The notes under the pieces: model-generated
What the model was told of the DNA's origin: nothing
What the model saw: the letters and a program-made list of their open reading frames with translations, nothing else
The model's database searches: none
Part shown: one piece after another, positions 26,261 through 54,155 of the stretch
Layout: each line of letters begins with the position of its first letter
Numbering within the stretch: the first letter of the stretch is position 1
Assembly: GCF_024700885.2 (NCBI RefSeq)
Contig: NZ_CP117016.1
Reading direction: 5' to 3' (one strand)
Origin: Escherichia coli
GTDB lineage: Bacteria; Pseudomonadota; Gammaproteobacteria; Enterobacterales; Enterobacteriaceae
Length of the DNA stretch: 64,000 bases
Program-made: the position numbers and the translations under genes

Positions 26261-26268
26261 TTATTCGC

Positions 26269-27981: not shown

Positions 27982-27999
27982 GAACAAAAGGGATTTAAC

Positions 28000-28314: not shown

Positions 28315-28366
28315 TAGCCTATATCAAGAAGTCTCTTTTAGCCCCTGCACAGGGGCTTTTTATTGC

Positions 28367-28801: not shown

Positions 28802-28894
28802 CCTTGCAAAATTTGATTTTGTCTTCCTGACAATACATATATAATTACCACATATTTAAAAAACATCAATAGACAAAACCTATTGATGTCAAAA

Positions 28895-29308
28895 TTATTT
28901 TTTGTTTTTGGGAAAAATTTGATCTTCTCTAATACATTTACCATATGCAACCATTTGAAGATCTCTAACCATAAGTAGAAGCCTGTTATTTTCACTAACT
29001 AACCTCGAATTTTCTGTTTCTAATTTACTGATTTTATTCGAAGCATAGGCAAGACTTTGAGGACTTTTAATATGCTTAACAGTTTCACCTTTAGTTCTCT
29101 TTTTCTGCTGATATGCATAAGCTATTACTGTATGTCTTGAAAGAGCCTGTCTCGTTGGTTTTTTACCGAAATGATCCTCTACGGAATCACAAAGACTGAC
29201 CCAAGTTAAATCGCCTTCCCAGCCATTTATTTTATCGAGAACGAATTCAATATCTTCCTTGTTAAACTTTTTACTCATTATGTTCTCCTCTAAGATAATA
29301 ACTAACAA
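28895..29308 (-). CDS. Small coiled-coil protein co-operonic with the recombinase trio (real start possibly MSKKFNKED at 29278)
   Basis: 137-aa ORF overlapping the stop of the upstream recombinase; C-terminal heptad-like KISKLETENSRLVSENNRLLLMVRDLQ. Confidence 0.5.
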   Translation of the reverse strand: MLVIILEENIMSKKFNKEDIEFVLDKINGWEGDLTWVSLCDSVEDHFGKKPTRQALSRHTVIAYAYQQKKRTKGETVKHIKSPQSLAYASNKISKLETENSRLVSENNRLLLMVRDLQMVAYGKCIREDQIFPKNKK

Positions 29309-33508: not shown

Positions 33509-33626
33509 TATCACCCCATAATTTATTTTTTTATTTATAGGTAACATAATTTTTTAGCAAGTTACAAATTTATTTGCTATTATTTTCAATGACCTTATTA
33601 CTCGCGACTCTAATAAAGAATCGGCC

Positions 33627-33652
33627 ATATATTCACCTTAAGGTGAATATAT
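33627..33652. promoter_or_regulatory. Perfect palindrome ATATATTCACC-TTAA-GGTGAATATAT between the recombinase operon and the tRNA genes
   Basis: 11-bp arms with a 4-bp spacer read directly; function (operator or recombination site) not determined. Confidence 0.5.
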
Positions 33653-33680
33653 ATTCCCTCTTGACGCTCCAAAAAACAAT

Positions 33681-33757
33681 GCGGTAGTAGTTCAGTTGGT
33701 CAGAATATTCCCCTGTCACGGGAATGGTCGTGGGTTCGAGTCCCATCTATCGCGCCA
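33681..33757 (+). tRNA. tRNA-Asp (anticodon GUC), foreign island-borne copy
   Basis: Manual cloverleaf: acceptor GCGGTAG/CTATCGC, D stem GTTC/GAAT, anticodon stem TTCCC/GGGAA with loop CUGUCAC, T loop TTCGAGT, 3' GCCA; differs from my recollection of the host tRNA-Asp. Confidence 0.8.
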
Positions 33758-33761
33758 GAAA

Positions 33762-33836
33762 GGGCAATTAACTCATTGGTAGAGTGTATCTCTTACAAAG
33801 ATATGGCGGTTGGTTCGATTCCAACATTGCCCACCA
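33762..33836 (+). tRNA. tRNA-Val (anticodon UAC), foreign island-borne copy
   Basis: Manual cloverleaf: acceptor GGGCAAT/ATTGCCC, D stem ACTC/GAGT, anticodon stem TATCT/AGATA with loop CUUACAA, T stem GTTGG/CCAAC, 3' ACCA. Confidence 0.8.
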
Positions 33837-33847
33837 AAACATAAAAT

Positions 33848-33917
33848 GCGTCAGTATTTCAATGGTAGAATAAAACATTGCCAATGTTTAGGTGAGGGTT
33901 CGATCCCCCTATATTTA
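33848..33917 (+). pseudogene. Degenerate tRNA-like sequence with a Gly (GCC) anticodon arm
   Basis: Intact anticodon arm AAACA-TTGCCAA-TGTTT and a T-loop-like GGGTTCGATCCCC, but the acceptor strands GCGTCAG and ATATTTA cannot pair. Confidence 0.4.
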
Positions 33918-34104
33918 CTTTAGTTAGTAACTCATTGATATAAAATAAATAATAGAAAAGTGTAATTTGTTTTGTAAAGCACAAATAAGAAATTAGAAAA
34001 TATTTAAATGTACAGTGTACGAAAAATTAACCAACTATGTTAATGGCAACTATATGATGATAAAATTACTCATCTAACGATCTATATTATATGAGTAATG
34101 TTTC

Positions 34105-34680
34105 ATGGTACGAAAAATCTCTACATTTTTAAAGATAATAGGAGTTATAGGTTCTTTATGCGGGATTATTGCGACAGTATTCACAATCTATGCGTACTAC
34201 AACCCGACCTCCCCTTCTACTCAGAGATATGACAGTATTGTAGGAAGCTGGCTATCTGATTACTCTTACACCGTAAAAGGGAATACCGTTAGGGTTAATG
34301 GAAAAACGACCTTCTTCTCTAATGGAAAATACAACTTTCATGGCAGTATCTCTATTGACTCTAATGCTCCAGGTGACCATATATTAATAGATTATCTTTC
34401 TGATGGTGCTGGTGATTGGGAACTATATGATAATGAGTTAATTACATCATTAAATAGCCTAAAAACAAAACCTATGAAGCTGGCTTTAAATAACGAAGAT
34501 CTTGATCCACTGAAAATAGAGGTGATAAACAATAAAAAGTTACCAACTATTGAGGAGAATATGGCTGATGGGAAAAACCAATCCTATAAAATAATAAAAT
34601 CTTCAAAAAGCCAGTTAACATTGGAGGTTATTAACGAAATCGGAAGCAATTTCAACTTTACTATGCAAAAAACAAAATAG
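34105..34680 (+). CDS. Hypothetical membrane-anchored or secreted protein
   Basis: 191-aa ORF with an N-terminal hydrophobic segment followed by a Ser/Thr/Asn-rich domain. Confidence 0.45.
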   Translation: MVRKISTFLKIIGVIGSLCGIIATVFTIYAYYNPTSPSTQRYDSIVGSWLSDYSYTVKGNTVRVNGKTTFFSNGKYNFHGSISIDSNAPGDHILIDYLSDGAGDWELYDNELITSLNSLKTKPMKLALNNEDLDPLKIEVINNKKLPTIEENMADGKNQSYKIIKSSKSQLTLEVINEIGSNFNFTMQKTK

Positions 34681-34711
34681 AAATGATGGCGATCTGAAAT
34701 CGCCATCATTT
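34681..34711. terminator. Perfect 13-bp stem hairpin, bidirectional terminator between the convergent 191-aa ORF and the helicase gene
   Basis: AAATGATGGCGAT-CTGAA-ATCGCCATCATTT with A/T runs on both sides, filling the gap between two stop codons. Confidence 0.75.
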
Positions 34712-34712
34712 T

Positions 34713-36560
34713 TCAACCTTGATAATCTTCAGCCTCGATACCACAATAAGTTATCATGTTTGTTATTAACGGTATATCATTACAATTCTGCTTGAAAGAC
34801 CTGCCATAACTATTGTTTCTTATTTTACAACGAGTCATTAATACTTCTTCAATGGCTCTTGAAAATGCCACAAAGACTGTTTTTTGATTTTCTATTTGCT
34901 CTTCTTCTTTACCAAAATAGGCACCAGGTTCAAGCCCCACAACGATGACCTTCCTGAACTCTAACCCTTTACTTTTATGGATGGTCATAAGAGGTATTGT
35001 TTTATTGCCAAGTAATAAATCAATGGCTTCTGATGTGTTTTCTTTTACATCTAACTTATCGAGGTGGCGAGAAAGTAATTCTATGCTATATTCTAAAACA
35101 TTCCCACTCATATACTGCGGAAAGTAAGACTTTATTTTATCGACACCAAATATACTTAATAATGAATATAAATAATCGACAATTTCTCCTTTAATTACCC
35201 GATGAGATTTAATAAACTGGCTAAGTTCTTTTTCTAACCGTGTAACATCACCTCTTTTACTTACTCCTCTTATATTACATAGAAGCTCCATTGTAGTGGC
35301 CCAGCTTTCTATGGATTTTCTATTACAGACAAACATTAGCATTTGTAAAAGTAACTGTACTACAGCTTCATTTAAAAGATCCTGATACTCGTTCTCAAGG
35401 CGACATTGTATTTTCAAATATTGCAATGCTGAAATGATATCGTCTGTATATTGTTTAGCCGGGTTTCTTAGCAGTATACATATATCTCTTTCATTTACTC
35501 CTTCAGCAATCCATTGCTGGATACATAATGCTATATATGCCCCTTCAATACTACTTTCGTCAAATTGTAGTAACTTAGCTGAACCTTCATTTTCAATCAA
35601 CATCATATCAGGCTTTATATCAGCATGATTCATGAAAGCTTCCATCATGCGTTGATAATTTATGAGGTTTTTTAATGACCTTCTATTGCTAACTAATTCA
35701 TTAGATTGTTCGATTCCAAAATCTTTTTTAAACACATCAAAAGCATTGTGCATTGCACCTGCCCAACCCATTATTCTTTGTTTTGTATCACCGACTGCTG
35801 TTATTTTTATTTTTTTACCCAAGAAAATGCTCTTAAAAATCTCATATTGCCTATATGTTGTGTCCTGAAACTCATCGATAAAAGCATAGTCATATGTTGA
35901 ATTTATAGCATTAGATAAATATTGATTCCTACTAATAATATAATTAGCAAGAAAATTAATCATCTTGAATGAAATCCTTGATTTTGGTTTTAATAAGTGT
36001 AACCACACAAACCGTCTTATCCTGCCATCAACAGAATGTTCTAATGCTTTATTATAAGGAGTTACTATATAATTCTCTTCAAAATTATAAGGTTGTAATT
36101 TATTTAATTCTTCAGATGTTAAACCTTCAAAGCCTACGGCCTCTCTTTTAATTTCTTCAACTAAATCATTATTATTTGGAAAGATTATTTCATAGTCATT
36201 TGATGGACGATAAGATTCCGGAATAGTGCTTTTAAAGCGATCAACAATACTTTTACAGAATGCATCAAATGTTGTTGATTCAAATTTGTGTCTATATTTT
36301 GTATCAAGCCGTGAGTTTACTCTATCTTGAAGATTTTTGGCCGCATCTTTTTTAAAGGATAATGCAATTATTTTTTTATTGCTGCATTTTCCTGTCTCAA
36401 TCAAGAAACAAGCTTTCTGAGCCAATAATTCTGTTTTACCTGCACCGGGACCAGCAAGAACGAGATTATGCCCTGTACTATTTCGAATTACCCTCATAGC
36501 CTCGTCTTCTACTTCTTGGATATCCTTTAAAACCCAATCGGCATCTTTAATAGTCGGCAT
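34713..36560 (-). CDS. gajB: UvrD/PcrA-like superfamily 1 helicase, Gabija GajB-like
   Basis: 615-aa ORF with Walker A (LAGPGAGKTELL), DEFQDTT motif and C-terminal HKSKGLEF motif; start codon shares one nucleotide with the upstream ATPase stop. Confidence 0.65.
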   Translation of the reverse strand: MPTIKDADWVLKDIQEVEDEAMRVIRNSTGHNLVLAGPGAGKTELLAQKACFLIETGKCSNKKIIALSFKKDAAKNLQDRVNSRLDTKYRHKFESTTFDAFCKSIVDRFKSTIPESYRPSNDYEIIFPNNNDLVEEIKREAVGFEGLTSEELNKLQPYNFEENYIVTPYNKALEHSVDGRIRRFVWLHLLKPKSRISFKMINFLANYIISRNQYLSNAINSTYDYAFIDEFQDTTYRQYEIFKSIFLGKKIKITAVGDTKQRIMGWAGAMHNAFDVFKKDFGIEQSNELVSNRRSLKNLINYQRMMEAFMNHADIKPDMMLIENEGSAKLLQFDESSIEGAYIALCIQQWIAEGVNERDICILLRNPAKQYTDDIISALQYLKIQCRLENEYQDLLNEAVVQLLLQMLMFVCNRKSIESWATTMELLCNIRGVSKRGDVTRLEKELSQFIKSHRVIKGEIVDYLYSLLSIFGVDKIKSYFPQYMSGNVLEYSIELLSRHLDKLDVKENTSEAIDLLLGNKTIPLMTIHKSKGLEFRKVIVVGLEPGAYFGKEEEQIENQKTVFVAFSRAIEEVLMTRCKIRNNSYGRSFKQNCNDIPLITNMITYCGIEAEDYQG

Positions 36561-38548
36561 TAAAGTAATCCTCTTACTGTTTCGATAATTTCATTAAGAA
36601 CTTCAGGACTATCATCTCTTAACTTATCGTCTTCCATTTTTGATAGAACATAATTGTGCGATAATGGTTTACCTCTTCCTAAAAATAGGTAACGATACCA
36701 AAAATATTTTTCATAATCATCGAACTCACTAATATCAATATCTTTCTCTTCTTTTTTCAAAACTGCAGCAATTGCCGATTTAACTTTATTATCATATTCA
36801 TGATCGTCATCTTTTGGCAATCTTGGCCCACCATTTTTGGGAACAAATGTCTTATAATCCTCAAAGAATTTATTAAGCATTAGCCAATCTAAATCGTAGG
36901 GGTAAGAAAAATAAACATTATAATCTTTTAGACAATTAATCCATGCCGATTCATTATCTTGATCCTCATCCCATGTATGCATTTTTTCAAGCTCTTCATC
37001 ACTTAAAGTTCCTGAAGTAATACTTAACAATTCATTTTTATCTGCACCTATAGATATTAATTGTTTGACTGCATATTTAATTCTTCCCCAACCACCACCT
37101 CCTCCTCTCTTGAAATCATAGTCGAGAAGAGTCACATGTGGAATTGAAAGCTCATTGAGTAACTTCCAAAAATGATTAACATATCGCCCTCCTAATGGAG
37201 CAAATGTTATCAATGAAGTGTCAAGCTCTATACCATTTACTTGAGCTATTTTAGGTATTACTATTTCTTCGCTATCACCTTCACCAAGTATTACAACTTT
37301 TGCAAAATAAATTTCTGGATATGCCTTCACTGCTTCTTTTACATAAGTGAAAGTATCAACATTGTCTCCATCGTCTTCATCTTCGCTTGGTAATAATATT
37401 GGTTTGACAACAGTATTTTTATTATCATGTAGACGAAAATACCTTATATTTTCTGGTTCTACTCTATTGAGTAATGAAGGTGCGTGTGTTGTTAAAACAA
37501 CCTGTGCTCGATCATTCTCAGATATATCTTCACATAGTTTAACTATTCTTCCTAAATATTGGGGTGAAAGATGATTTTCTGGTTCTTCGATTAATATTAT
37601 CGTTAAATTTGGAGGATCTAATGCTTCTACTGATATTGATAATTCATTTTCTCCTGAATTAATGATCTCATCTTCAATATCAAATGCAGATTTGACTAAC
37701 GAAAGATAAAACAATGACTTCATACCATCACTCAATCTTTCAGTTGGTAATGGCTGAGTCACCGGAGTAGGCATAAATACAGTATCTATATGCTTTAATA
37801 CATCTTCTATTCCATTCATTACTGGCTGAATTTTAAGCTGTTCAAAATACCCTCCGCTAAAAAGAGTTTTCCAATTTCTGCCCAATGAAGATGTTATTGT
37901 CTGAACCCCAATTTCTTCTTGGAACTGGTTTCCGATTGATTCTGCAACCTCATCAACCGTTGAACTCATCTGTTCAGACCATTCAACTGCATTTATCAAA
38001 CGGTGCATGATGGTTCCGGCTGTTTGCTTCAGTTGTTGAGCAGGATCGCGATAAGCAGGGACATAATGAACATGGATTTTTGATCTTTCATATGCTGTAA
38101 TATTTTTTTCATATTCTCCTATTTCCCATACTAAATCACTATCTATATCCCCTTCTGCAAGATTAGTTTTTGTCCATTTAGCTTTTAATTTTGCTATACA
38201 GTATGGGATCTGGTCTGCTTCATTTGAGACCAAATGCTTAAAGAAATCAGCGACTGAATCGTCCTCACCATCTTGCAGATCTGCAAATTCAAATTTTACA
38301 CGAACTGATAATTCTCTTTCATCTTGAGTATCGATTTCATCTCCAGGAGGAACATAAAAATCATCAACTTGAACAATTCTATCGGAGCTTTTGACACCAA
38401 ACATCCTTGTCAATGCGAGGAGAACAGCCGTCTTACCTGTTCCATTCCCTCCAATTAAGCTGGTGAATGAATTTATATTTATAGTTTGCCCTACATTATC
38501 AAAGCTCTTAAAACCTTTGATCTCCATTTGTGTAATTTTCATTATCAC
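36560..38548 (-). CDS. gajA: OLD-family ATPase-TOPRIM nuclease, Gabija GajA-like
   Basis: 662-aa ORF with ABC-type Walker A (LIGGNGTGKTAVLL), Walker B and H-loop region (IILIEEPENHLSP) and a C-terminal TOPRIM-like VVILGEGDSEE. Confidence 0.65.
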   Translation of the reverse strand: MIMKITQMEIKGFKSFDNVGQTININSFTSLIGGNGTGKTAVLLALTRMFGVKSSDRIVQVDDFYVPPGDEIDTQDERELSVRVKFEFADLQDGEDDSVADFFKHLVSNEADQIPYCIAKLKAKWTKTNLAEGDIDSDLVWEIGEYEKNITAYERSKIHVHYVPAYRDPAQQLKQTAGTIMHRLINAVEWSEQMSSTVDEVAESIGNQFQEEIGVQTITSSLGRNWKTLFSGGYFEQLKIQPVMNGIEDVLKHIDTVFMPTPVTQPLPTERLSDGMKSLFYLSLVKSAFDIEDEIINSGENELSISVEALDPPNLTIILIEEPENHLSPQYLGRIVKLCEDISENDRAQVVLTTHAPSLLNRVEPENIRYFRLHDNKNTVVKPILLPSEDEDDGDNVDTFTYVKEAVKAYPEIYFAKVVILGEGDSEEIVIPKIAQVNGIELDTSLITFAPLGGRYVNHFWKLLNELSIPHVTLLDYDFKRGGGGGWGRIKYAVKQLISIGADKNELLSITSGTLSDEELEKMHTWDEDQDNESAWINCLKDYNVYFSYPYDLDWLMLNKFFEDYKTFVPKNGGPRLPKDDDHEYDNKVKSAIAAVLKKEEKDIDISEFDDYEKYFWYRYLFLGRGKPLSHNYVLSKMEDDKLRDDSPEVLNEIIETVRGLL

Positions 38549-39195
38549 CTCAATTGCTGTTTTAAAAAATTATAATCACTAATTATTTCTGCGTTTGTAA
38601 TGATTTCTTGTGAGCACAGCTTAAAACATTCTAAAAATATATTTTTATTATCGTTATGTTCCCAATGTTTTTTCAAAGCTTCTTCAATTGAAATCCAAAT
38701 AACTTGAAAATCGTTATTAGATATTTGGCTTGTTAAAACTGTTTCTTCCACACAAAGTATATGCCCTAAGATGACATCATCGTATATGTCAGTATCTGAA
38801 TCTCTAACTCCTAACCTTTTTATTTTCCTTTTTTGGATGATTTTATTTTTAACAATAAAAGGATGTTCTTCTATAAAATCGGTCAATGATGTAAAAGCCA
38901 AGCCACGAACCTGAGCACCATGCATTGAACTATTTACTTTATGGATATCTCTCCAAACTCGCAGATCACCTAATACATAGAGAACCCGCTGATTTCTCGC
39001 TTTCGTATCTTCTGCTTGGTATTGGATATAAGGTGGCCCTCCCCCATTTTGTCTATATCGGGCAAGGGTTTTGATGCTTATGCCAAGAAAGACAGAAGCA
39101 AGCTCACTATTTACAGTGGCAGAATCAGGCATTTGACCAAATAGTTTCCATACCTCTGAATACTCCCGCAAAACTTCCACCACACTCATCTTCAC
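38545..39195 (-). CDS. Uncharacterised protein with an N-terminal HTH-like motif, translationally coupled between the integrase and the ATPase (possible true start at ATG 39189)
   Basis: 216-aa ORF; ELASVFLGISIKTLARYRQNGGGPP resembles excisionase/AlpA-type HTH; its start overlaps the integrase stop and its stop overlaps the ATPase start (ATGA). Confidence 0.5.
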   Translation of the reverse strand: MKMSVVEVLREYSEVWKLFGQMPDSATVNSELASVFLGISIKTLARYRQNGGGPPYIQYQAEDTKARNQRVLYVLGDLRVWRDIHKVNSSMHGAQVRGLAFTSLTDFIEEHPFIVKNKIIQKRKIKRLGVRDSDTDIYDDVILGHILCVEETVLTSQISNNDFQVIWISIEEALKKHWEHNDNKNIFLECFKLCSQEIITNAEIISDYNFLKQQLR

Positions 39196-40655
39196 TCCCT
39201 CGTTTCAGGTAATGGAGGATACTTAGCCGAAGCAAGTAACACATTGTATAATTTAGGAGCAGTCATAAGCATATGCAACTCAATCCTTTGTAATGCTTCA
39301 AAAATCCGTTCTTGATCAGGTTCTGCATACCTTTCTGTTGGATCTGTTGTATTTCTGTGATTGAGCAGTCTCTTAACGACGGCATATGAAACAAGTTCTT
39401 CAGCAACCCTACCAAATGTCCTTCGTAGATCATGCATACCAAGCTTCAGGATTCCCGCCTCTTGGCAGATATATTCCCTTAGACTTTTACTATCGGAATA
39501 GTGACCAACTTTACTTCGAGAAGAACGGGCCGGGAAAACCCACTTCTGTTTGTCCTTCTGGGTTACCGTATCGTTTACTATGTCTCTTCTATCTTCCAAA
39601 ATTCTTTTGACAGCATCACAAATCGGAAGCTCGTGATCGTTTCGATTCTTAGTGTCGTAAAAACGGATAGTTCTGTTACTCAGGTCAACATAGCTTGTCG
39701 TTTTAGCTTCTTCCTTTGTAAGAGACTCTCGCCAACACAGAGAAGCTGTTTCTTCCTTACGAGCACCTAAGAGAACGGTAAGTAGCAGATAATCGCACCC
39801 AAGCCGGTTGAAGCTTCTCTTGTTGAACAATGCAGTCAAGAACCGACCAAGTGTATCCTTTGGTGATAAGGGGTTTCTGACACCTTTTGCCCGATAACTA
39901 TCCTCAAGCTCAGAACGTGTCCTAAACTTTTTCTGTACCTTTAAGATACTGAAAGGGTTGTAAGATAGAGAAGGTTGTCGTTGCTGGGTCTGAGCATTCC
40001 CAGCTTCAATCTCTATTGCGTGTTTTACAGCAACATTCGCCCACCTAAAGGTCTGTTCCGCTGCTGTTCTGGCTCTTGAAGCAATCTCATCAAACTTCCT
40101 AAGAATTTCATTACCAGTAAGATCTTTAACTCGCAAACCAGCCCACTCAGAAAGCCTGTTTTCTGCTTTATCTAATACAGCCAAGGTGTTGGGTTTAGCT
40201 GGTTTCGCTCTACCCAGCAGATGCTGGCGGTATTGTGCAAACACTTCACTGATAGTGAGTTCAGAAGCATCGGACTCCCGTTTTATTTTGTTAGGGTTCC
40301 TTTTGGTCAACTTCATGGTTTGAACTAAATTGCGAGCAACCTCGCGGGCTTGATCGATGTTAGCGAAATCAGAGACATTGCCAATTGTAGACCTGATAAC
40401 CTCAGATGGGGATTTTCCCCCTGTCTTAGGGCGATTGCCAGGAGAAGAGACTCGTCGCTGAACGATATAGGTCTTTTTCGTTGCACTGATTTTGACACCA
40501 AAACCAACGGGTGAATCCCGGTGATTATCAGTGATAAGATACGGTTTTCGCTCTGGATTGGGTAAGTAGACTACTCTGCCTTGCGGATCAAGGCTCGGTT
40601 TCACGTCGATAGATAACTTATTGATTATAATCGACTGATTGAGTGTCATTTTCAT
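39192..40655 (-). CDS. Tyrosine integrase, P4-like family with N-terminal arm-binding domain (ORF extends to 40763; start set at MKMTLNQ)
   Basis: Box I LLGARKEETASL, HDLRRTFG (HxLR) and C-terminal NHRNTTDPTERY; lies at the island border next to the target gene. Confidence 0.8.
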   Translation of the reverse strand: MKMTLNQSIIINKLSIDVKPSLDPQGRVVYLPNPERKPYLITDNHRDSPVGFGVKISATKKTYIVQRRVSSPGNRPKTGGKSPSEVIRSTIGNVSDFANIDQAREVARNLVQTMKLTKRNPNKIKRESDASELTISEVFAQYRQHLLGRAKPAKPNTLAVLDKAENRLSEWAGLRVKDLTGNEILRKFDEIASRARTAAEQTFRWANVAVKHAIEIEAGNAQTQQRQPSLSYNPFSILKVQKKFRTRSELEDSYRAKGVRNPLSPKDTLGRFLTALFNKRSFNRLGCDYLLLTVLLGARKEETASLCWRESLTKEEAKTTSYVDLSNRTIRFYDTKNRNDHELPICDAVKRILEDRRDIVNDTVTQKDKQKWVFPARSSRSKVGHYSDSKSLREYICQEAGILKLGMHDLRRTFGRVAEELVSYAVVKRLLNHRNTTDPTERYAEPDQERIFEALQRIELHMLMTAPKLYNVLLASAKYPPLPETRE

Positions 40656-40660
40656 CGATG

Positions 40661-40716
40661 TATACCAGTGGTTCAAGTGTGTATACCAGATAGTAGCTAG
40701 AATACTTCTGGTATAC
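40661..40716. promoter_or_regulatory. Three copies of TATACCAG, including a 10-bp inverted repeat GTATACCAGA...TCTGGTATAC, between the integrase start and mutS
   Basis: Read directly; candidate integrase operator or arm sites, overlapping a possible -10 (TAGAAT) for the rewired mutS. Confidence 0.5.
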
Positions 40717-40787
40717 AAATTTATGGGTTTATGTGAGTTTAAAGGGGTATCACTTGGGGCCACATAAGTACTCAGAAGACTTTAAAA

Positions 40788-43370
40788 ATGAGTAAAATCA
40801 ATATGAAAGAGTCTGCAAGCAAGGATCTATCAGACCACACTCCTATGATGCAGCAATATCTCAAGCTGAAAGCCCAGCATCCCGAGATCCTGCTGTTTTA
40901 CCGGATGGGTGATTTTTATGAACTGTTTTATGACGACGCAAAACGCGCGTCGCAACTGCTGGATATTTCACTGACCAAACGCGGTGCTTCGGCGGGAGAG
41001 CCGATCCCGATGGCGGGGATCCCCTACCATGCGGTGGAAAACTACCTCGCCAAACTGGTGAATCAGGGCGAGTCCGTTGCCATCTGCGAACAAATTGGCG
41101 ATCCGGCGACCAGCAAAGGTCCGGTTGAGCGCAAAGTTGTGCGTATCGTTACGCCAGGCACCATCAGCGATGAAGCCCTGTTGCAGGAGCGTCAGGACAA
41201 CCTGCTGGCGGCTATCTGGCAGGACAGCAAAGGTTTCGGCTACGCGACGCTGGATATCAGTTCCGGGCGTTTTCGCCTGAGCGAACCGGCTGACCGCGAA
41301 ACGATGGCGGCAGAGCTGCAACGCACTAATCCGGCAGAGCTGTTGTATGCAGAAAATTTCGCCGAGATGTCGCTGATTGAAGGTCGTCGCGGACTGCGCC
41401 GTCGCCCGCTATGGGAGTTTGAAATCGACACCGCGCGCCAGCAGTTGAATCTGCAATTTGGCACCCGCGATCTGGTCGGTTTTGGCGTCGAGAACGCGCC
41501 GCGCGGACTTTGTGCTGCCGGTTGTCTGTTGCAGTATGCGAAAGATACCCAACGTACGACTCTGCCGCATATTCGTTCCATCACCATGGAACGTGAGCAG
41601 GACAGCATCATTATGGATGCCGCGACGCGTCGTAATCTGGAAATCACCCAGAACCTGGCGGGTGGTGCGGAAAATACGCTGGCTTCTGTGCTCGACTGCA
41701 CCGTCACGCCGATGGGCAGCCGTATGCTGAAACGCTGGCTGCATATGCCAGTGCGCGATACCCGCGTCTTGCTTGAGCGCCAGCAAACTATTGGCGCATT
41801 GCAGGATTTCACCGCCGAGCTGCAGCCGGTACTGCGTCAGGTCGGCGACCTGGAACGTATTCTGGCGCGTCTGGCTTTACGAACTGCTCGCCCACGCGAT
41901 CTGGCCCGTATGCGTCACGCTTTCCAGCAACTGCCGGAGCTGCGTGCGCTATTAGAAAATGTCGATAGCGCTCCGGTACAGGCGCTGCGTGAAAAAATGG
42001 GCGAGTTTGCCGAGCTGCGCGATCTGCTGGAGCGAGCAATCATCGACACACCGCCAGTGCTGGTACGCGACGGTGGTGTTATCGCACCGGGCTATAACGA
42101 AGAGCTGGATGAGTGGCGCGCGCTGGCTGACGGCGCGACCGATTATCTGGAGCGTCTGGAAGTCCGCGAGCGTGAACGTACTGGCCTGGACACCCTGAAA
42201 GTCGGCTTTAACGCGGTTCATGGTTATTACATTCAGATCAGCCGTGGACAAAGCCATCTGGCACCCATCAATTACATGCGTCGCCAGACGCTGAAAAACG
42301 CCGAGCGCTACATTATTCCAGAGCTAAAAGAGTACGAAGACAAAGTTCTCACTTCAAAAGGCAAAGCACTGGCACTGGAAAAACAGCTTTATGAAGAGTT
42401 GTTCGACCTGCTGTTGCCGCATCTGGAAGCGTTGCAACAGAGCGCGAGCGCGCTGGCGGAACTCGACGTGCTGGTGAACCTGGCAGAACGGGCCTATACG
42501 CTGAACTACACCTGCCCGACCTTTATTGATAAACCGGGTATTCGCATCACCGAAGGCCGCCATCCGGTGGTTGAACAGGTGCTGAATGAGCCGTTTATCG
42601 CCAACCCGCTGAACCTGTCGCCGCAGCGTCGCATGTTGATCATTACCGGTCCGAATATGGGCGGTAAAAGTACCTATATGCGCCAGACCGCACTGATTGC
42701 GCTGATGGCCTACATCGGCAGCTATGTACCGGCACAAAAAGTCGAGATTGGACCTATCGATCGCATCTTTACCCGCGTAGGGGCAGCGGATGATCTGGCA
42801 TCCGGGCGTTCAACCTTTATGGTGGAAATGACCGAAACCGCCAATATTTTACATAACGCCACCGAGTACAGTCTGGTGCTGATGGATGAGATTGGGCGCG
42901 GGACGTCCACTTACGATGGTCTGTCGCTGGCGTGGGCGTGCGCGGAAAATCTGGCGAATAAGATTAAAGCGTTGACACTGTTTGCCACCCACTATTTCGA
43001 GCTGACCCAGTTACCGGAGAAAATGGAAGGCGTCGCCAACGTGCATCTCGATGCGCTGGAGCACGGCGACACCATTGCCTTTATGCACAGCGTGCAGGAT
43101 GGCGCGGCGAGCAAAAGCTACGGCCTGGCGGTTGCAGCTCTGGCAGGCGTGCCAAAAGAGGTTATTAAGCGCGCACGGCAAAAACTGCGTGAGCTGGAAA
43201 GCATTTCGCCGAACGCCGCCGCTACGCAAGTGGATGGTACGCAAATGTCTTTGCTGTCAGTGCCAGAAGAAACGTCGCCTGCGGTCGAGGCACTGGAAAA
43301 CCTCGACCCGGATTCACTGACTCCGCGTCAGGCGCTGGAGTGGATTTATCGCTTGAAGAGTCTGGTGTAA
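40788..43370 (+). CDS. mutS: DNA mismatch repair protein MutS with an island-encoded replacement N-terminus
   Basis: 860-aa ORF; matches the MutS sequence as I recall it from HTPMMQQYL onward (Walker [10 protein letters not shown] present), but the first 16 residues [16 protein letters not shown] are encoded by island DNA. Confidence 0.93.
40836..40858. repeat. Right copy of the imperfect direct repeat flanking the island (attR candidate), inside the mutS coding sequence
   Basis: CACACTCCTATGATGCAGCAATA; 19 of 23 positions match 22999-23021. Confidence 0.65.
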
Positions 43371-48817: not shown

Positions 48818-50182
48818 ATGTCCACAATTACATTGTTATGCATTGCGTTAACTGGCGTAATCATGCTGTTGCTGCTGGTCATCAAGGCAAAGGTACAACC
48901 ATTCGTTGCTCTGCTCCTCGTCAGCCTGTTAGTCGCACTTGCGGCGGGTATACCAGCGGGCGAAGTGGGTAAAGTGATGATCGCCGGGATGGGCGGTGTG
49001 CTTGGTTCCGTCACTATTATTATTGGTCTGGGCGCTATGCTGGGGCGTATGATCGAACACTCTGGTGGTGCAGAGTCACTGGCTAATTATTTCAGTCGCA
49101 AGTTAGGTGACAAACGAACTATCGCTGCGCTGACTCTGGCAGCGTTCTTCCTCGGTATTCCCGTCTTCTTTGATGTCGGCTTTATTATTCTTGCGCCAAT
49201 CATTTACGGTTTTGCCAAGGTTGCCAAAATATCGCCACTCAAATTTGGCCTGCCTGTCGCTGGAATCATGCTAACTGTTCATGTGGCGGTACCGCCGCAT
49301 CCAGGCCCTGTCGCCGCAGCGGGGTTACTCCACGCAGACATCGGCTGGCTAACCATCATCGGTATTGCGATTTCTATTCCAGCAGGGATTGTTGGCTACT
49401 TTGCAGCGAAAATAATCAATAAGCGCCAATATGCGATGTCGGTGGAAGTACTGGAACAGATGCAACTGGCTCCGGCCAGTGAGGAAGGCGCGACAAAATT
49501 AAGCGATAAAATAAATCCACCGGGCGTCGCGCTGGTCACCTCGCTAATTGTTATTCCTATCGCGATTATCATGGCGGGTACGGTTTCCGCAACACTGATG
49601 CCGCCTTCGCATCCCCTGCTTGGTACGCTACAGCTGATCGGCTCACCAATGGTAGCTCTAATGATTGCGCTGGTGCTGGCATTCTGGTTATTGGCTTTAC
49701 GTCGCGGCTGGAGCTTACAACACACCAGCGACATTATGGGCTCAGCCCTTCCCACTGCGGCGGTAGTGATTTTGGTTACTGGTGCTGGAGGGGTATTTGG
49801 CAAAGTGCTGGTGGAATCGGGCGTCGGCAAAGCCCTTGCCAACATGCTACAAATGATTGACCTGCCTCTGTTACCAGCCGCATTTATTATTTCACTGGCG
49901 CTGCGTGCATCGCAGGGGTCAGCAACCGTAGCAATCCTGACAACCGGCGGGTTACTCTCAGAAGCGGTGATGGGATTGAATCCGATTCAGTGCGTATTGG
50001 TGACGCTGGCAGCCTGCTTTGGTGGGCTTGGCGCGTCACATATTAATGACTCAGGGTTCTGGATTGTGACCAAATATCTGGGGTTGTCGGTAGCAGACGG
50101 TCTGAAAACCTGGACAGTGTTAACGACCATTCTCGGTTTTACCGGATTCTTAATTACCTGGTGCGTATGGGCGGTAATTTGA
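48818..50182 (+). CDS. ygbN: GntP-family permease
   Basis: 454-aa polytopic membrane ORF. Confidence 0.85.
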   Translation: MSTITLLCIALTGVIMLLLLVIKAKVQPFVALLLVSLLVALAAGIPAGEVGKVMIAGMGGVLGSVTIIIGLGAMLGRMIEHSGGAESLANYFSRKLGDKRTIAALTLAAFFLGIPVFFDVGFIILAPIIYGFAKVAKISPLKFGLPVAGIMLTVHVAVPPHPGPVAAAGLLHADIGWLTIIGIAISIPAGIVGYFAAKIINKRQYAMSVEVLEQMQLAPASEEGATKLSDKINPPGVALVTSLIVIPIAIIMAGTVSATLMPPSHPLLGTLQLIGSPMVALMIALVLAFWLLALRRGWSLQHTSDIMGSALPTAAVVILVTGAGGVFGKVLVESGVGKALANMLQMIDLPLLPAAFIISLALRASQGSATVAILTTGGLLSEAVMGLNPIQCVLVTLAACFGGLGASHINDSGFWIVTKYLGLSVADGLKTWTVLTTILGFTGFLITWCVWAVI

Positions 50183-50190
50183 CCTTAATA

Positions 50191-50218
50191 AAAAGGTCCG
50201 ATGGGCATCGGACCTTTT
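50191..50218. terminator. Bidirectional hairpin between ygbN and the decarboxylase cluster
   Basis: AAAAGGTCCGAT-GGGC-ATCGGACCTTTT. Confidence 0.65.
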
Positions 50219-50220
50219 AT

Positions 50221-50457
50221 TTAGCGCTTACCTTCCGCCAGCAGCGGCGGGATGCTCGGCACCATCGGCGCGTCATCAATATCTTTCTGCGTCATGCGGA
50301 ACGCTTCGGGATAATGTTCGCGGCTGGTGCGGCGTAGCGGTTCGGTATCGCGCCAGGTATAGAGGCAATGCTGGCACTGATAGATCGTCCAGACATCTTT
50401 TACCGGCGATTTCGCCATCACTTCAATCTGTTCATCAGCACAACGTGGACAAATCAT
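50221..50457 (-). CDS. Small zinc-ribbon subunit of a non-oxidative hydroxyarylic acid decarboxylase (subunit D type)
   Basis: 78-aa ORF with CPRC...CQHC, downstream of UbiD-like and UbiX-like genes. Confidence 0.7.
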   Translation of the reverse strand: MICPRCADEQIEVMAKSPVKDVWTIYQCQHCLYTWRDTEPLRRTSREHYPEAFRMTQKDIDDAPMVPSIPPLLAEGKR

Positions 50458-50467
50458 CTTGTTCTCC

Positions 50468-51895
50468 TTATTTACGTGCGGCCAGCATAGCGGTCAGTTT
50501 TTCAGCCCAGGCTTTGGTTTCCGGTAAATCCACCACCGGCTGGCTGTAGTGACCACGGTTGTCCGGGGCGACAGGCGTGGTGGCGTCGATAATCAGCTTG
50601 TCGGTGATACCGGCCGGGCTTGAGCCGGGGTCGAGTTCCAGCACGGACATATTCGGCAACTGCACCAAATCCCCTGCCGGGTTCACTTTCGAAGAGAGCG
50701 CCCACATCACCTGCGGCAGGTTGAACGGATCAACGTCTTCATCGACCATAATCACCATCTTCACGTAGCCCAGACCGTGTGGCGTGGTCATCGCACGCAG
50801 GCCCACCGCGCGGGCAAAGCCACCGTAGCGTTTTTTGGTGGAGATAATCGCCAGCAGGCCGTGGGTGTACATGGCGTTCACCGCCTGCACTTCCGGGAAC
50901 TCGGCTTTCAGTTGCTGATACAGCGGCACGCAGGTGGCTGGCCCCATCAGGTAGTCGATTTCTGTCCACGGCATGCCGAGGTACAGCGATTCGAAAATCG
51001 GCCTGGTGCGGTAAGAGACTTTATCGATACGCACCACGGTCATGTTACGCCCGCCGGAGTAGTGCCCGGTAAACTCACCGAACGGCCCTTCGATTTCGCG
51101 TTTACGGCTTTCGATGACCCCTTCGAGGATCACCTCCGAGCCCCACGGCACATCAAAACCGGTCAATGGCGCGGTGGCGATCGGATACGGGCTTTCGCGC
51201 AGCGCGCCTGCCATTTCATACTCAGACTGATCGTATTTCAGCGGCGTGGCCCCCATCAGGGTGATGATCGGATCGTTACCGAGCGTGATTGCAATCGGCA
51301 GATCTTCACCGCGCTCTTCTGCTTTATGCAGATGCAGGGCGATATCGTGCATCGGCACCGGTTGCAGGCCGAGCTTACGCTTGCCCTTCACTTCCATGCG
51401 GTAGATGCCGACGTTCTGCTTGCCGAAGTTATCCGGATCAAGCGGATCGCGGGAAACCACGCACGCTTTGTCGAGATAGAAACCGCCATCGCCATCGTTT
51501 AAACGAAACAGCGGCAGGATATCGAACAGGTTGATCTCGTCGCCATCGACGGTGTTCTGCGCCCAGGCTGGATTGGCGCGGCGCTCCGGGGCAATCGGGA
51601 AGTTATCCCAGCGGCGGATAAACTCATCAATCTGCTTTTTGACCGGGGTGTTTGGCGGCAGGCCGAGGGAAATCGCGTGGTTCTGCCAGGAACCGATGGT
51701 ATTCATCGCCACACGGGCATCGGTAAAGCCGCGAATATTATCAAACCACAGCGCGGGCGCGCCGTCGCCGATACGCCCGGTGGCGTTAGCTGCTGCTGCC
51801 AGATCCGGTTCCGCGTTCACCTCTTCGCTGATTTTCAGTAACTGTCCGTGGTCATCAAGCGCCTGTAAAAAGCTGCGTAAATCATCAAATGCCAT
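50468..51895 (-). CDS. UbiD-family (prenylated-FMN dependent) decarboxylase, subunit C type
   Basis: 475-aa ORF with UbiD-like length and sequence character. Confidence 0.8.
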   Translation of the reverse strand: MAFDDLRSFLQALDDHGQLLKISEEVNAEPDLAAAANATGRIGDGAPALWFDNIRGFTDARVAMNTIGSWQNHAISLGLPPNTPVKKQIDEFIRRWDNFPIAPERRANPAWAQNTVDGDEINLFDILPLFRLNDGDGGFYLDKACVVSRDPLDPDNFGKQNVGIYRMEVKGKRKLGLQPVPMHDIALHLHKAEERGEDLPIAITLGNDPIITLMGATPLKYDQSEYEMAGALRESPYPIATAPLTGFDVPWGSEVILEGVIESRKREIEGPFGEFTGHYSGGRNMTVVRIDKVSYRTRPIFESLYLGMPWTEIDYLMGPATCVPLYQQLKAEFPEVQAVNAMYTHGLLAIISTKKRYGGFARAVGLRAMTTPHGLGYVKMVIMVDEDVDPFNLPQVMWALSSKVNPAGDLVQLPNMSVLELDPGSSPAGITDKLIIDATTPVAPDNRGHYSQPVVDLPETKAWAEKLTAMLAARK

Positions 51896-52488
51896 TATTC
51901 ATTCTCCTGAGAAAAATTCCGGACCTGCGGCAATCCTTGCCAGCGCCTGGCGTGGGGATGTTCGAGGCCAAATTGATCCAGCACGCGGGCTACCACGTGG
52001 TGGACAATGTCATCTACCGTTTCGGGATGGTTATAAAAGGCAGGCATCGGCGGCACCATCGCCACGCCCATGCGTGAAAGTGCGAGCATATTTTCGAGAT
52101 GGATGGTGCTAAGCGGCATTTCACGCGGCACCAGCACTAGTTTGCGGCCTTCTTTGAGCACGACGTCCGCCGCGCGCCCTACCAGGCCATCGGCGTAACC
52201 GGCACGGATACCGGCGAGCGTTTTCATACTGCACGGAATAACGATCATGCCGTCGGTACGAAAGGAACCTGAGGAGATGGTCGCCGCCTGATCCGCCGGG
52301 TTATGACTGAAGTCTGCGAGGGCAGCAACATCGCGAGCGCTGTAAGGCGTTTCCAGTTCAATGGTGGTTTTCGCCCACTTCGACATCACCAGATGAGTCT
52401 CGACATTCGGCATCTCCCGCAGCGCTTGCAGTAATGCCACCCCAAGAGGCGCACCGGTAGCCCCTGTCATCCCGACGATCAGTCTCAT
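51895..52488 (-). CDS. UbiX/Pad1-family flavin prenyltransferase, subunit B type
   Basis: 197-aa ORF starting MRLIVGMTGATGAP, a typical UbiX N-terminus. Confidence 0.8.
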   Translation of the reverse strand: MRLIVGMTGATGAPLGVALLQALREMPNVETHLVMSKWAKTTIELETPYSARDVAALADFSHNPADQAATISSGSFRTDGMIVIPCSMKTLAGIRAGYADGLVGRAADVVLKEGRKLVLVPREMPLSTIHLENMLALSRMGVAMVPPMPAFYNHPETVDDIVHHVVARVLDQFGLEHPHARRWQGLPQVRNFSQENE

Positions 52489-52601
52489 TGTTTATTCTCT
52501 TAATTGTTCGTATACGAACGTTATTATTAAAATACGCCTCTGTTTTCATCGCGGCAAGCACTGAAAAGTAACAACATCTTCTTCGTCACTGAAAAACCGC
52601 T

Positions 52602-53042
52602 ATGATAGCCACAGATAGTTTGCCCGGAGTTTACATGGCGTTACGAAATAAAGCGTTCCATCAGTTACGACAGCTTTTTCAGCAGCACACGGCTCGCTGG
52701 CAGCACGAGTTACCTGACCTCACCAAACCACAGTACGCGGTGATGCGCGCCATTGCTGATAAGCCTGGTATCGAACAGGTGGCACTGATGGAAGCAGCAG
52801 TCAGCACCAAAGCAACGCTGGCAGAAATGCTGGCAAGAATGGAAAATCGTGGCTTAGTCAGACGAGAACATGACACCGCTGATAAGCGGCGACGCTTTGT
52901 CTGGCTGACTGCCGAAGGAGAAAAGGTACTTGCTGCGGCGATACCGATTGGTGACAGCGTGGATGAGGAATTTTTGGGGCGTTTGAGTGCAGAAGAGCAG
53001 GAGCTGTTTATGCAGCTGGTGCGCAAGATGATGAACGCATAG
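52602..53042 (+). CDS. MarR/SlyA-family transcriptional regulator (start may be the internal Met at 52635)
   Basis: 146-aa ORF with winged-helix region, divergent from the decarboxylase operon. Confidence 0.75.
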   Translation: MIATDSLPGVYMALRNKAFHQLRQLFQQHTARWQHELPDLTKPQYAVMRAIADKPGIEQVALMEAAVSTKATLAEMLARMENRGLVRREHDTADKRRRFVWLTAEGEKVLAAAIPIGDSVDEEFLGRLSAEEQELFMQLVRKMMNA

Positions 53043-53110
53043 GGGGCAAATTTCCGGATGCGACGCTATCGCGTCTTATCCAGACTACAAATACACCGAC
53101 TCACCAACCG

Positions 53111-53147
53111 AAAGAAAAAAGGCCAGCCTCGCTTGAGACTGGCCTTT
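53111..53147 (-). terminator. rpoS terminator hairpin
   Basis: GGCCAGCCTCGCTTGAGACTGGCC preceded on the plus strand by an A run (a T run on the transcript). Confidence 0.6.
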
Positions 53148-53162
53148 CTGACAGATGCTTAC

Positions 53163-54155
53163 TTACTCGCGGAACAGCGCTTCGATATTCAGCCCCTGCG
53201 TTTGCAGGATTTCGCGCAAACGGCGCAGGCCTTCAACCTGAATCTGGCGAACACGTTCACGGGTGAGGCCAATTTCACGACCTACATCTTCCAGTGTTGC
53301 CGCTTCGTACCCCAGCAAACCGAATCGACGTGCCAGTACTTCACGCTGTTTGGCGTTCAGCTCGAACAGCCATTTGACGATGCTCTGCTTCATATCGTCA
53401 TCTTGCGTGGTATCTTCCGGACCGTTCTCTTTTTCATCGGCCAGGATGTCCAGCAACGCTTTTTCGGAATCACCACCTAGCGGGGTGTCTACCGAGGTAA
53501 TGCGCTCGTTAAGACGAAGCATACGGCTGACGTCATCAACTGGCTTATCCAGTTGCTCTGCGATCTCTTCCGCACTTGGTTCGTGGTCCAGTTTATGGGA
53601 CAACTCGCGTGCGGTTCGCAGGTAAACGTTCAGCTCCTTTACGATGTGAATCGGCAAACGAATAGTACGGGTTTGGTTCATAATCGCCCGTTCGATCGTC
53701 TGGCGAATCCACCAGGTTGCGTATGTTGAGAAGCGGAAACCACGTTCCGGGTCAAACTTCTCTACCGCGCGGATCAGCCCCAGGTTGCCCTCTTCGATCA
53801 GGTCCAGCAACGCCAGACCACGATTGCCATAACGGCGGGCAATTTTTACCACCAGACGCAAGTTACTCTCGATCATCCGGCGGCGGGAGGCAACATCTCC
53901 ACGCAGTGCGCGACGCGCAAAATAAACTTCTTCTTCGGCCGTTAACAGTGGTGAATAACCAATCTCACCAAGGTAAAGCTGAGTCGCGTCCAACACACGC
54001 TGTGTGGCTCCCTGCGATAACAGTTCCTCTTCGGCCAAATCGTTATCACTGGGTTCCTCTTCTACTAAGGCCTTTTCGTCAAAAACCTCAACTCCGTTCT
54101 CATCAAATTCCGCATCTTCATTTAAATCATGAACTTTCAGCGTATTCTGACTCAT
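53163..54155 (-). CDS. rpoS: RNA polymerase sigma factor RpoS (sigma-38)
   Basis: 330-aa ORF starting [21 protein letters not shown], with sigma-70 family regions 2-4. Confidence 0.95.

Follow-up and report, generated by a model that had tools for sequence, protein, structure and literature searches.

A hosA-ecdBCD decarboxylase locus between ygbN and rpoS of Escherichia coli, probably ancestral and lost from K-12-type strains

In the 64,000-nucleotide stretch of E. coli DNA analyzed here (the window), the open reading frame list places three co-oriented minus-strand genes and a divergent MarR-family gene at positions 50221-53042. We conclude that this segment is, very probably, the ancestral enterobacterial hosA-ecdBCD locus (also known as kpdBCD, the HAD operon, or "slyA-pad1-yclC"), which would encode a 4-hydroxybenzoate-regulated decarboxylase that K-12-type strains have lost. 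The gene content, protein families, motifs, operator, K-12 absence, frequencies, and synteny on which this rests come from the present analysis; the enzyme activity, the subunit D requirement, and the induction by 4-hydroxybenzoate are carried over from the literature and from homologs. A sequence-only reading of the same DNA had described, between ygbN and rpoS, an operon of UbiX-like, UbiD-like, and zinc-ribbon genes together with a divergent regulator of the MarR type, and the open reading frames, family models, and solved structures bear this description out. Its open reading frame positions were confirmed exactly, the sole coordinate correction being the start of the MarR gene (most likely 52635, not 52602). 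That reading had left both the regulator, HosA, and the operon, ecdBCD/kpdBCD/HAD, unnamed; both have been characterized experimentally.

Architecture and boundaries of the locus

The operon reads B-C-D on one strand and is tightly packed, with the ecdB stop and the ecdC start overlapping by 1 nt and a gap of 10 nt between ecdC and ecdD. Among its genes, ecdB (vdcB, kpdB, or "pad1"; 51895-52488, minus strand) encodes a 197-residue protein predicted to be a UbiX-type flavin prenyltransferase making prenylated FMN (prFMN); ecdC (vdcC, kpdC, or "yclC"; 50468-51895, minus strand) encodes a 475-residue protein predicted to be the catalytic subunit of a UbiD-family, prFMN-dependent hydroxyarylic acid decarboxylase; and ecdD (vdcD or kpdD; 50221-50457, minus strand) encodes the 78-residue zinc-ribbon subunit D, which has a proline-rich C-terminal tail. 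The divergent gene, hosA ("slyA-like" or kpdR; 52635-53042, plus strand), encodes a 135-residue protein predicted to be a 4-hydroxybenzoate-responsive MarR-family repressor, and is separated from ecdB by a control region of 146 bp (52489-52634). The longest open reading frame for the regulator spans 52602-53042 (146 residues), but 52635 is most likely the real start, because PGAP places the start there in identical genomes and the crystallized HosA has its residue 1 at the same position; starting at 52602 would add 11 N-terminal residues that are missing from the crystallized protein and from the PGAP annotation.

The block was said to be absent from K-12, and a search for it at the same position in MG1655 found only a 93-bp ygbN-rpoS spacer, in which 8 nt (GTGCACAG) stand in place of 2,895 bp of the window (50222-53116), a segment slightly longer than the gene span itself. 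On the left, ygbN ends at 50182 and is followed by a shared flank (50183-50221) that is identical to the first 39 nt of the K-12 spacer and forms a hairpin, A-run / GGTCCGATG-GGC-CATCGGACC / T-run, which could terminate both ygbN on the plus strand and ecdD on the minus strand. The megablast alignment breaks at 50221, the final base of this flank, a base that also opens the ecdD stop codon (TTA on the plus strand). On the right, the shared flank holds the intrinsic terminator hairpin of rpoS, a terminator-like site of 15 pairs (53116-53149, minus strand), and the 46 nt directly before the rpoS stop (53163) are identical to K-12. Both block junctions lie in the interval bounded by two terminator hairpins, that of ygbN and that of rpoS. 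The GC content of the block is 0.57-0.59, as against ∼0.51-0.53 in its flanks. An Rfam scan of the whole window returned no RNA family in or beside the block, the only hits being tRNAs inside an unrelated island. The 5' end of mutS holds an integrated 17.8-kb island that carries Gabija.

Decarboxylase subunits and the HosA regulator

As judged from their sequences, all four proteins either reach curated family thresholds or match near-identical solved structures. EcdB aligns over residues 1-197 of 197 with PDB 1SBZ, the "Probable aromatic acid decarboxylase" Pad1 of O157:H7 (E = 1.3e-128), matches the Pfam Flavoprotein family, and scores 312.8 bits with the NCBIfam VdcB model NF041206 (cut-off 290). 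Its top NCBIfam match was BagM/FevK (343 bits), an assignment we rejected since this score lies below the cut-off of 420, whereas the VdcB model was passed. EcdC scores 790.5 bits with the VdcC model NF041204 (cut-off 650), matches the Pfam families UbiD_N, UbiD, and UbiD_C, and aligns over residues 3-471 with chain A of PDB 7AE4, the ShVdcC subunit (E = 2e-160). It retains the motifs NVGIYR (161-166) and EGPFGE (269-274), in which Arg166, Glu269, and Glu274 align with the Glu-Arg-Glu (ERE) residues of ShVdcC (NVGTYR; Glu273 and Glu278); Glu278 of ShVdcC has been identified as the catalytic residue (PMC8379154). EcdD scores 120.5 bits with the VdcD equivalog model NF041205 (cut-off 30) and aligns with ShVdcD (PDB 7AE4 chain a, E = 4e-11), such that Cys3, Cys6, Cys28, and Cys31 occupy the zinc-ligand positions in two CXXC knuckles, and conservation extends to Arg36 and Glu39, whose equivalents make salt bridges in ShVdcD. 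The protein ends in a proline-rich tail (...PMVPSIPPL).

By homology, EcdD is assigned as an allosteric activator of subunit C. VdcC activity strictly requires VdcD, and VdcCD homologs take both vanillate and 4-hydroxybenzoate in a reversible reaction (PMC8379154); further, a lysate of E. coli expressing kpdBCD turned 4-hydroxybenzoate into phenol (Lupa 2005, as cited in PMC6424909). By analogy, EcdB would make prFMN, and EcdC would use it for the reversible, non-oxidative decarboxylation of 4-hydroxybenzoate and related phenolic acids to phenol and CO2, while EcdD would bind EcdC near the loops bearing the catalytic Glu-Arg-Glu residues and would be needed for activity.

The same family and subunit logic is seen in Sedimentibacter hydroxybenzoicus VdcCD (ShdCD; PDB 7AE4, 7AE5, and 7AE7) and Bacillus subtilis BsdBCD, where a UbiD hexamer is decorated with zinc-ribbon D subunits, has the ERE residues, and is active on 4-hydroxybenzoate and vanillate. 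These are, however, distant Firmicutes homologs, whose D subunit has 10 fewer residues and departs in sequence beyond the zinc ribbon. In B. subtilis, control of the operon falls to the LysR-type BsdA and not to a MarR protein. The UbiD and UbiX of K-12 ubiquinone biosynthesis (PDB 2IDB and 5M1C) belong to the same two superfamilies and share the prFMN chemistry and the 4-hydroxybenzoate scaffold, but they are paralogs rather than orthologs: UbiD takes a polyprenylated substrate, works without a D subunit, and is encoded elsewhere. EcdC scores 173.7 bits with the UbiD equivalog model, for which the cut-off is 788.

The regulator matches Pfam PF01047 (MarR, 47.7 bits) and PDB 8AGA, "Transcriptional regulator HosA" (E = 2.8e-83), with residues 12-145 of the 146-residue query corresponding to chain residues 1-134. 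Older typing papers labeled this gene "slyA" (PMC4209514). We rejected SlyA as an identity, given a score of 28.4 bits with NF002926 (cut-off 120) and the match to HosA; on its sequence, the regulator is a SlyA/MarR-family homolog and not SlyA itself. HosA of E. coli UMN026 and EPEC, represented by 8AGA and six further entries, is a near-identical protein (E = 3e-83) with the same 14-bp palindromic operator in the same divergent region, and shows no difference of substance.

In the control region, this operator appears as a perfect 14-bp inverted repeat, GTTCGTATACGAAC (52506-52519), lying 18-31 nt upstream of the ecdB start codon, and the 28 nt around it (CTTAATTGTTCGTATACGAACGTTATTA) equal a HosA-binding-site oligonucleotide in the supplement of PMC6261655. 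In 69 of 80 species-level loci from other Enterobacterales, the palindrome was found at the same intergenic position with at most one mismatch. HosA is reported to repress the HAD operon and itself, with 4-hydroxybenzoate disrupting its DNA binding (Roy & Ranjan 2016, as cited in bioRxiv 10.1101/2024.04.24.590444); the HosA-4-hydroxybenzoate KD is 4.74 μM (PMC6261655), and 4-hydroxybenzoate induces the operon in E. coli (bioRxiv 10.1101/2024.04.24.590444; PMC6261655). HosA would, as in these studies, bind the palindrome just upstream of ecdB as a divergently transcribed, MarR-type dimer and repress both the operon and its own gene, until 4-hydroxybenzoate binding (KD ∼5 μM) released it from DNA and induced the operon. 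A sigma-70 consensus scan of positions 50100-53250 found no promoter-like site, including in the 146-bp control region, and manual inspection for ecdB and hosA promoters gave poor -35/-10 candidates only. An occupied operator would presumably block transcription by promoter occlusion or as a roadblock.

Distribution and origin of the block

The mutS-rpoS (o454-nlpD) region had been described as varying between lineages, and is indeed documented as polymorphic, with four patterns that include a defined "pattern IV" (PMC4209514). The order of pattern IV, namely ygbN (o454), then kpdD-kpdC-kpdB-slyA(hosA), then rpoS, is also that of the window, and genomes identical to it are annotated likewise; the coexistence of the block with ygbI-N, which the sequence-only reading had pointed out, corresponds to the published E2348/69 type. 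Across 5,426 complete E. coli genomes, our census of the published arrangements assigns 5,396 to one of the four: ygbN plus block, the type of the window, in 1,601 (29.5%); block without ygbI-N, the O157 type, in 805 (14.8%); the K-12 type in 1,950 (35.9%); and the B2 type in 1,040 (19.2%). Herbelin et al. in 2000 reportedly gave the primary description of gene loss in the mutS-rpoS region. Of the 5,426 genomes, 2,380 (∼44%) carry at least 80% of the 2,895-bp segment. The sequence-only reading had placed the block in some pathogenic lineages, and O157-type genomes do carry it; at this frequency, however, and with pig, bird, dog, and wastewater isolates among its carriers, the block extends beyond pathogenic lineages.

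The 2.9-kb rpoS-proximal segment of E. coli O157:H7 and EPEC carries these four genes too, likewise beside rpoS and in an unchanged order. An O157-type EcdC (WP_000863205.1) is identical to that of genomes identical to the window, and the window block and O55:H7/O157-type alleles share ∼95.9% DNA identity. The two types differ in their neighbor: since O157-type genomes lack ygbI-N, their block has pphB at its border, whereas the window block adjoins ygbN, as in EPEC E2348/69. Outside E. coli, the Klebsiella pneumoniae KpdBCD and Enterobacter cloacae 4-hydroxybenzoate decarboxylase loci are orthologous B-C-D operons with a divergent MarR gene, and also adjoin rpoS. Across the retrieved species of Klebsiella and Enterobacter, EcdC is ∼96-97% identical and EcdB 84-89%, but HosA only ∼71-81%; several of these species have ∼2.5 kb of extra DNA between hosA and rpoS (RpoS at ∼1,200 versus ∼3,750 in locus coordinates).

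Among the 80 comparison loci, 51 have rpoS-nlpD no farther than 6 kb from hosA-ecdBCD; they come from Citrobacter, Klebsiella, Enterobacter, Kluyvera, Salmonella, Kosakonia, Franconibacter, and other genera. The ecdC dS against these genera is 0.7-1.1 (Pseudocitrobacter aside, at 0.32), compared with 0.4-1.2 for rpoS and 0.75-1.2 for nlpD; the dN/dS of ecdC is ∼0.02. Across Enterobacteriaceae, synonymous sites are close to saturation, and EcdC is similar to RpoS in its degree of conservation (∼96-99% amino acid identity). Because the rpoS-nlpD synteny recurs in these 51 loci and the synonymous divergence of the block reaches the level seen in the flanking core genes, the sequence comparison identifies the block as ancestral for Enterobacteriaceae rather than as an insertion, and K-12 as having lost it. 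The block would then have stood beside rpoS since before the Enterobacteriaceae genera split; K-12-type strains would have lost it by a clean deletion between the two terminator hairpins, B2 strains would carry different genes at the site, and O157-type strains would have kept the block and lost ygbI-N.

The opposite history, in which pathogenic lineages gained the block as a horizontally acquired islet in an originally K-12-like ygbN-rpoS junction, with Shigella or a GC-richer enterobacterium as possible donors, is in our estimation highly improbable. The raised GC of the block and an ecdC GC3 of 0.70 (0.53-0.55 for ygbN, rpoS, and nlpD) could be taken as signs of a foreign donor, but ecdC GC3 is high in other genera as well (0.60-0.70), and therefore characterizes the gene itself rather than marking a donor. 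A preprint does claim horizontal acquisition from Shigella (10.1101/2024.04.24.590444); Shigella, however, lies phylogenetically within E. coli, so that similarity to S. dysenteriae is no proof of transfer. The patchy distribution within E. coli (44%) also fits acquisition, as does Escherichia sp. E1V33, where the block dS (0.29-0.51) exceeds the 0.12 of the flanks, a sign of allelic exchange inside the genus. Against this stand the same four genes beside rpoS-nlpD across many genera, an inter-genus block dS that equals or exceeds that of the flanking core genes, and junctions that lie between two terminators retained by K-12. The block boundaries showed no integrase, transposase, direct repeat, or tRNA, and a mobile islet was rejected on this lack of mobility genes and boundary repeats together with the synteny and the dS.

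Physiological role and significance

Two other readings accept the gene identities and place the main function elsewhere. The operon might serve mainly for something other than 4-hydroxybenzoate detoxification, such as (i) other phenolic acids (vanillate, protocatechuate, or gallate), (ii) carboxylation under the anaerobic, high-CO2 conditions of the gut, or (iii) the supply of prFMN and an activator subunit to other UbiD enzymes, and we regard this as unlikely while giving it some weight. The acceptance of vanillate and the reversibility reported for VdcCD homologs (PMC8379154) speak for it, as do the unusually strong constraint on EcdC (∼97% amino acid identity to Klebsiella, Enterobacter, and Salmonella, at the low dN/dS given above) and the several Enterobacterales loci that have no ecdB and must obtain prFMN from UbiX; yet the cognate regulator answers to 4-hydroxybenzoate, which also induces the operon in E. 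coli, and the K. pneumoniae homolog produces phenol from 4-hydroxybenzoate in lysates. Far less credible is that HosA is chiefly a global, SlyA-like regulator of virulence and motility whose position beside ecdBCD is coincidental. The first account of HosA presented it as regulating motility in EPEC (Ferrandiz et al. 2005, as cited in PMC5491219), and the older "slyA" annotation points the same way, but the divergent hosA-ecdB(C) layout is kept along with the operator palindrome in the 69 loci, the match to the SlyA model is weak, and direct repression of the operon with relief by 4-hydroxybenzoate has been reported. The HosA regulon may nevertheless be wider than the ecdBCD operon.

The locus is already published and well characterized, so that the observation made here is correct but ordinary, and matters little beyond correct annotation. 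It serves as a textbook case of mutS-rpoS polymorphism and, for more than 20 years, as a strain-typing marker; HosA is already in use as a biosensor for 4-hydroxybenzoate; and HosA, the O157:H7 B-subunit homolog (1SBZ), and a distant C-D complex all have solved structures. It seems improbable to us that the operon has an important, niche-specific, unrecognized role (in stationary phase or the anaerobic gut, for example in controlling the 4-hydroxybenzoate pool for ubiquinone or in phenol production), or that the variable sequence downstream of rpoS has a part in the differences in RpoS level known among strains; either could follow, because EcdC is strongly conserved and linked to rpoS in most genera and yet was lost in K-12-type strains, while B2 strains have other genes at the site. 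Our modest additions are the census of the four arrangements, the exact deletion end-points between two hairpins, and the synteny and dS support for an ancestral block lost in K-12, as against the acquisition of hosA from Shigella proposed in the preprint.

Layout, junctions, and distribution of the hosA-ecdBCD block

Within the ORF list for 46-57 kb of the window, three closely packed minus-strand ORFs, namely ecdD (78 aa, 50221-50457), ecdC (475 aa, 50468-51895), and ecdB (197 aa, 51895-52488), together with a divergent plus-strand hosA (longest ORF 146 aa, 52602-53042), lie between ygbN (plus strand, ending at 50182) and rpoS (minus strand, stop codon at 53163), after which comes nlpD. This is the decarboxylase operon with a divergent MarR-family gene described at these coordinates in the sequence-only reading, an interpretation that is supported. 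The block has a GC content of 0.57-0.59, against about 0.51-0.53 in its flanks. The ecdB stop and ecdC start codons overlap by one base (51893-51897), and ecdC and ecdD are separated by 10 nt, which suggests that the three subunits are translationally coupled.

Collinearity between K-12 MG1655 and the window stops after 50221 and resumes at 53117; K-12 carries 8 nt (GTGCACAG) in place of the 2,895 bp of the window, confirming the stated absence of the block from K-12 at this position. Its ygbN-rpoS spacer measures 93 bp, of which the first 39 nt and the last 46 nt are the same as in the window. Each end of the block falls immediately inside a terminator hairpin that K-12 keeps: the left hairpin, flanked by A- and T-runs and abutting the ecdD stop codon, is the ygbN terminator, and the right hairpin is that of rpoS. 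The block boundaries bear no integrase, transposase, tRNA, or direct repeat.

The four arrangements of a published typing scheme (PMC4209514), tallied by junction across 5,426 complete E. coli genomes, together account for 5,396 of them (99.4%), bearing out the proposed polymorphism of the region between lineages. Pattern II (K-12 type), in which ygbN directly precedes rpoS, was found in 1,950 genomes; pattern IV (E2348/69 type), ygbN plus block, in 1,601; pattern III (B2 type, for example Nissle), in which an MBL-fold hydrolase and a flavodoxin replace the block, in 1,040; and pattern I (O157 type), pphB plus block without ygbI-N, in 805. The window has pattern IV, the combination of the block with ygbI-N that was also pointed out beforehand. 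At least 80% of the block is present in 2,380 of the 5,426 genomes. Its occurrence in some pathogenic lineages holds for the O157 type, but the block is not pathogen-specific, because its carriers include pig, bird, dog, and wastewater isolates.

Protein identities, operator, and proposed function

Curated models gave unambiguous family assignments for all four proteins. EcdD scored 120.5 bits against the VdcD equivalog cut-off of 30; EcdC, which has the complete set of three UbiD Pfam domains, 790.5 bits against 650 for VdcC; and EcdB 312.8 bits against 290 for VdcB, also exceeding the UbiX flavin-prenyltransferase subfamily models. The 146-aa hosA product is a MarR-family winged-helix regulator. 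Every membership that we tested, of the proteins and of the locus, was recovered, except for "SlyA", an old label for the regulator, which was rejected at 28.4 bits against an equivalog cut-off of 120.

Solved structures agree: EcdB aligned end to end with PDB 1SBZ (E 1e-128), EcdC matched Sedimentibacter VdcC (PDB 7AE4, E 2e-160), EcdD matched the Zn-ribbon partner of VdcC in the same entry, and the regulator matched "Transcriptional regulator HosA" (PDB 8AGA plus six other entries, E 3e-83). In the 8AGA alignment, residue 1 of crystallized HosA corresponds to residue 12 of the long ORF, in agreement with the PGAP start at 52635 in identical genomes. EcdD Cys3, Cys6, Cys28, and Cys31 correspond to the four Zn ligands of S. 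hydroxybenzoicus VdcD (PMC8379154). EcdC keeps the motifs NVGIYR (R166) and EGPFGE (E269 and E274), whose glutamates align with E273 and E278 of ShVdcC, the latter being the catalytic glutamate named in that enzyme (PMC8379154).

In the 146-bp divergent ecdB-hosA region, a perfect 14-bp palindrome, GTTCGTATACGAAC, occupies 52506-52519, 18-31 nt 5' of the ecdB start codon, and the 28 nt around it are identical to an oligonucleotide listed as a HosA binding site in the PMC6261655 supplement. According to that study, the HosA site is a 14-bp palindrome and 4-hydroxybenzoate (4-HBA) releases HosA; the KD is 4.74 uM. Of 80 related loci from other Enterobacterales, 69 have the palindrome at the corresponding intergenic position when one mismatch is allowed. 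A consensus promoter scan of this control region returned no site, so the exact mode of HosA repression is inferred.

With gene content, family membership, motifs, and operator established in the window, a function may be proposed by analogy with homologs and the literature. EcdB would supply prenylated FMN, with which EcdC would reversibly decarboxylate 4-HBA and vanillate-type acids; EcdD would bind EcdC near its ERE loops, and EcdC activity would strictly depend on it, as PMC8379154 reports for the corresponding subunits. HosA would complete the regulatory loop as a substrate-responsive repressor; Roy & Ranjan 2016, as relayed in bioRxiv 10.1101/2024.04.24.590444, describe HosA autorepression and repression of the hydroxyarylic acid decarboxylase operon, with 4-HBA as inducer. 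When the K. pneumoniae orthologs are expressed in E. coli, the cell lysate turns 4-HBA into phenol (Lupa 2005, as relayed in PMC6424909). Every component of the locus was known before: the 2.9-kb segment (LeClerc 1999, Herbelin 2000, and Ewers 2014), the VdcCD mechanism, the structure of the B subunit (1SBZ), and HosA together with the operator, ligand, and structures of this regulator are already described.

Ancestry of the block at the rpoS-adjacent site

A search for EcdC relatives in one genome per species gave 80 loci, and in 51 of these rpoS, mostly together with nlpD, lies inside the 6-kb flank. The rpoS-linked genera include Citrobacter, Pseudocitrobacter, Klebsiella, Enterobacter, Kluyvera, Leclercia, Lelliottia, Atlantibacter, Kosakonia, Franconibacter, Mangrovibacter, Cedecea, and Pluralibacter. 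Where rpoS is missing, the contig is truncated or the locus mostly comes from Enterobacterales that are more distant, such as Rahnella, Pantoea, and Erwinia. In Salmonella enterica subsp. diarizonae/arizonae and Phytobacter spp. (L020, L023, L025, L049, and L051), the block adjoins rpoS but is inverted versus E. coli, with ecdD, not hosA, toward rpoS. Several Klebsiella, Enterobacter, and Leclercia loci hold about 2.5 kb of extra DNA in the hosA-rpoS gap.

By the Nei-Gojobori method, ecdC dS versus the rpoS-linked genera is 0.7-1.1 (Pseudocitrobacter, 0.32), comparable with the flanking rpoS (0.4-1.2) and nlpD (0.75-1.2), and its dN is low (0.015-0.05). Purifying selection rather than recent transfer thus accounts for the striking 96-99% EcdC protein identity across genera. 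The GC3 of ecdC is high (0.60-0.70), likewise in most other genera. From these sequence comparisons, we conclude that the block is ancestral at the rpoS-adjacent site and was deleted in K-12, in agreement with the title of Herbelin et al. 2000. An ancestral block deleted in K-12 argues against the reading that it was horizontally acquired from Shigella (bioRxiv 10.1101/2024.04.24.590444).

Two further observations concern the related loci. Between Pseudocitrobacter vendiensis (L009) and the window, dS is only 0.32 for ecdC and ecdD (50221-51895), versus far more diverged values elsewhere (ecdB 0.93, rpoS 0.69, and nlpD 0.90), making this segment a candidate for localized inter-genus exchange. 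In about a dozen Enterobacterales species (loci L043, L055, L056, L065, L067, L070, L075, L076, L078, L081, L085, and L086), ecdB is absent from the operon and hosA lies directly 5' of ecdC; their prFMN presumably comes from the housekeeping UbiX.

An integrative island within mutS

Compared with the strain that best matches the block, the window departs from collinearity by an extra 17.8 kb at 23019-40834. This element is an integrative, mobilizable island inside the 5' end of mutS, with junctions at 22998-23018 and 40835-40855, an identical 11-bp core (ATGATGCAGCA) at both ends, and a cargo that includes three tyrosine recombinases, one relaxase, and a Gabija pair (GajA, 36560-38548, 798 bits; GajB, 34713-36560, 659 bits). 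Near the recombinases lie tRNA-Asp and tRNA-Val genes (33681-33910, as annotated in MLI114, an identical genome), and a third tRNA-like match in the island is partial (34.4 bits, model positions 8-63). Integration occurred within the first codons of mutS, leaving the original start as a 47-bp remnant (22972-23018); the functional gene instead opens with codons contributed by the island, at 40788 or 40803, and the native mutS promoter has been moved 17.8 kb away.

The island is found full-length at 100% identity in two genomes only, MLI114 and CFSAN061761, and at least 80% of an 18-kb query spanning it is present in 6 of the 5,426 genomes. The same mutS site also houses related islands whose cargo differs (HerA, for example). 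Strain 1190, with a 100% identical ecd block, carries an IS621 between hycI and ascB (window ~7889) that is absent from the window, which is nearer to MLI114 and CFSAN061761 than to this strain.
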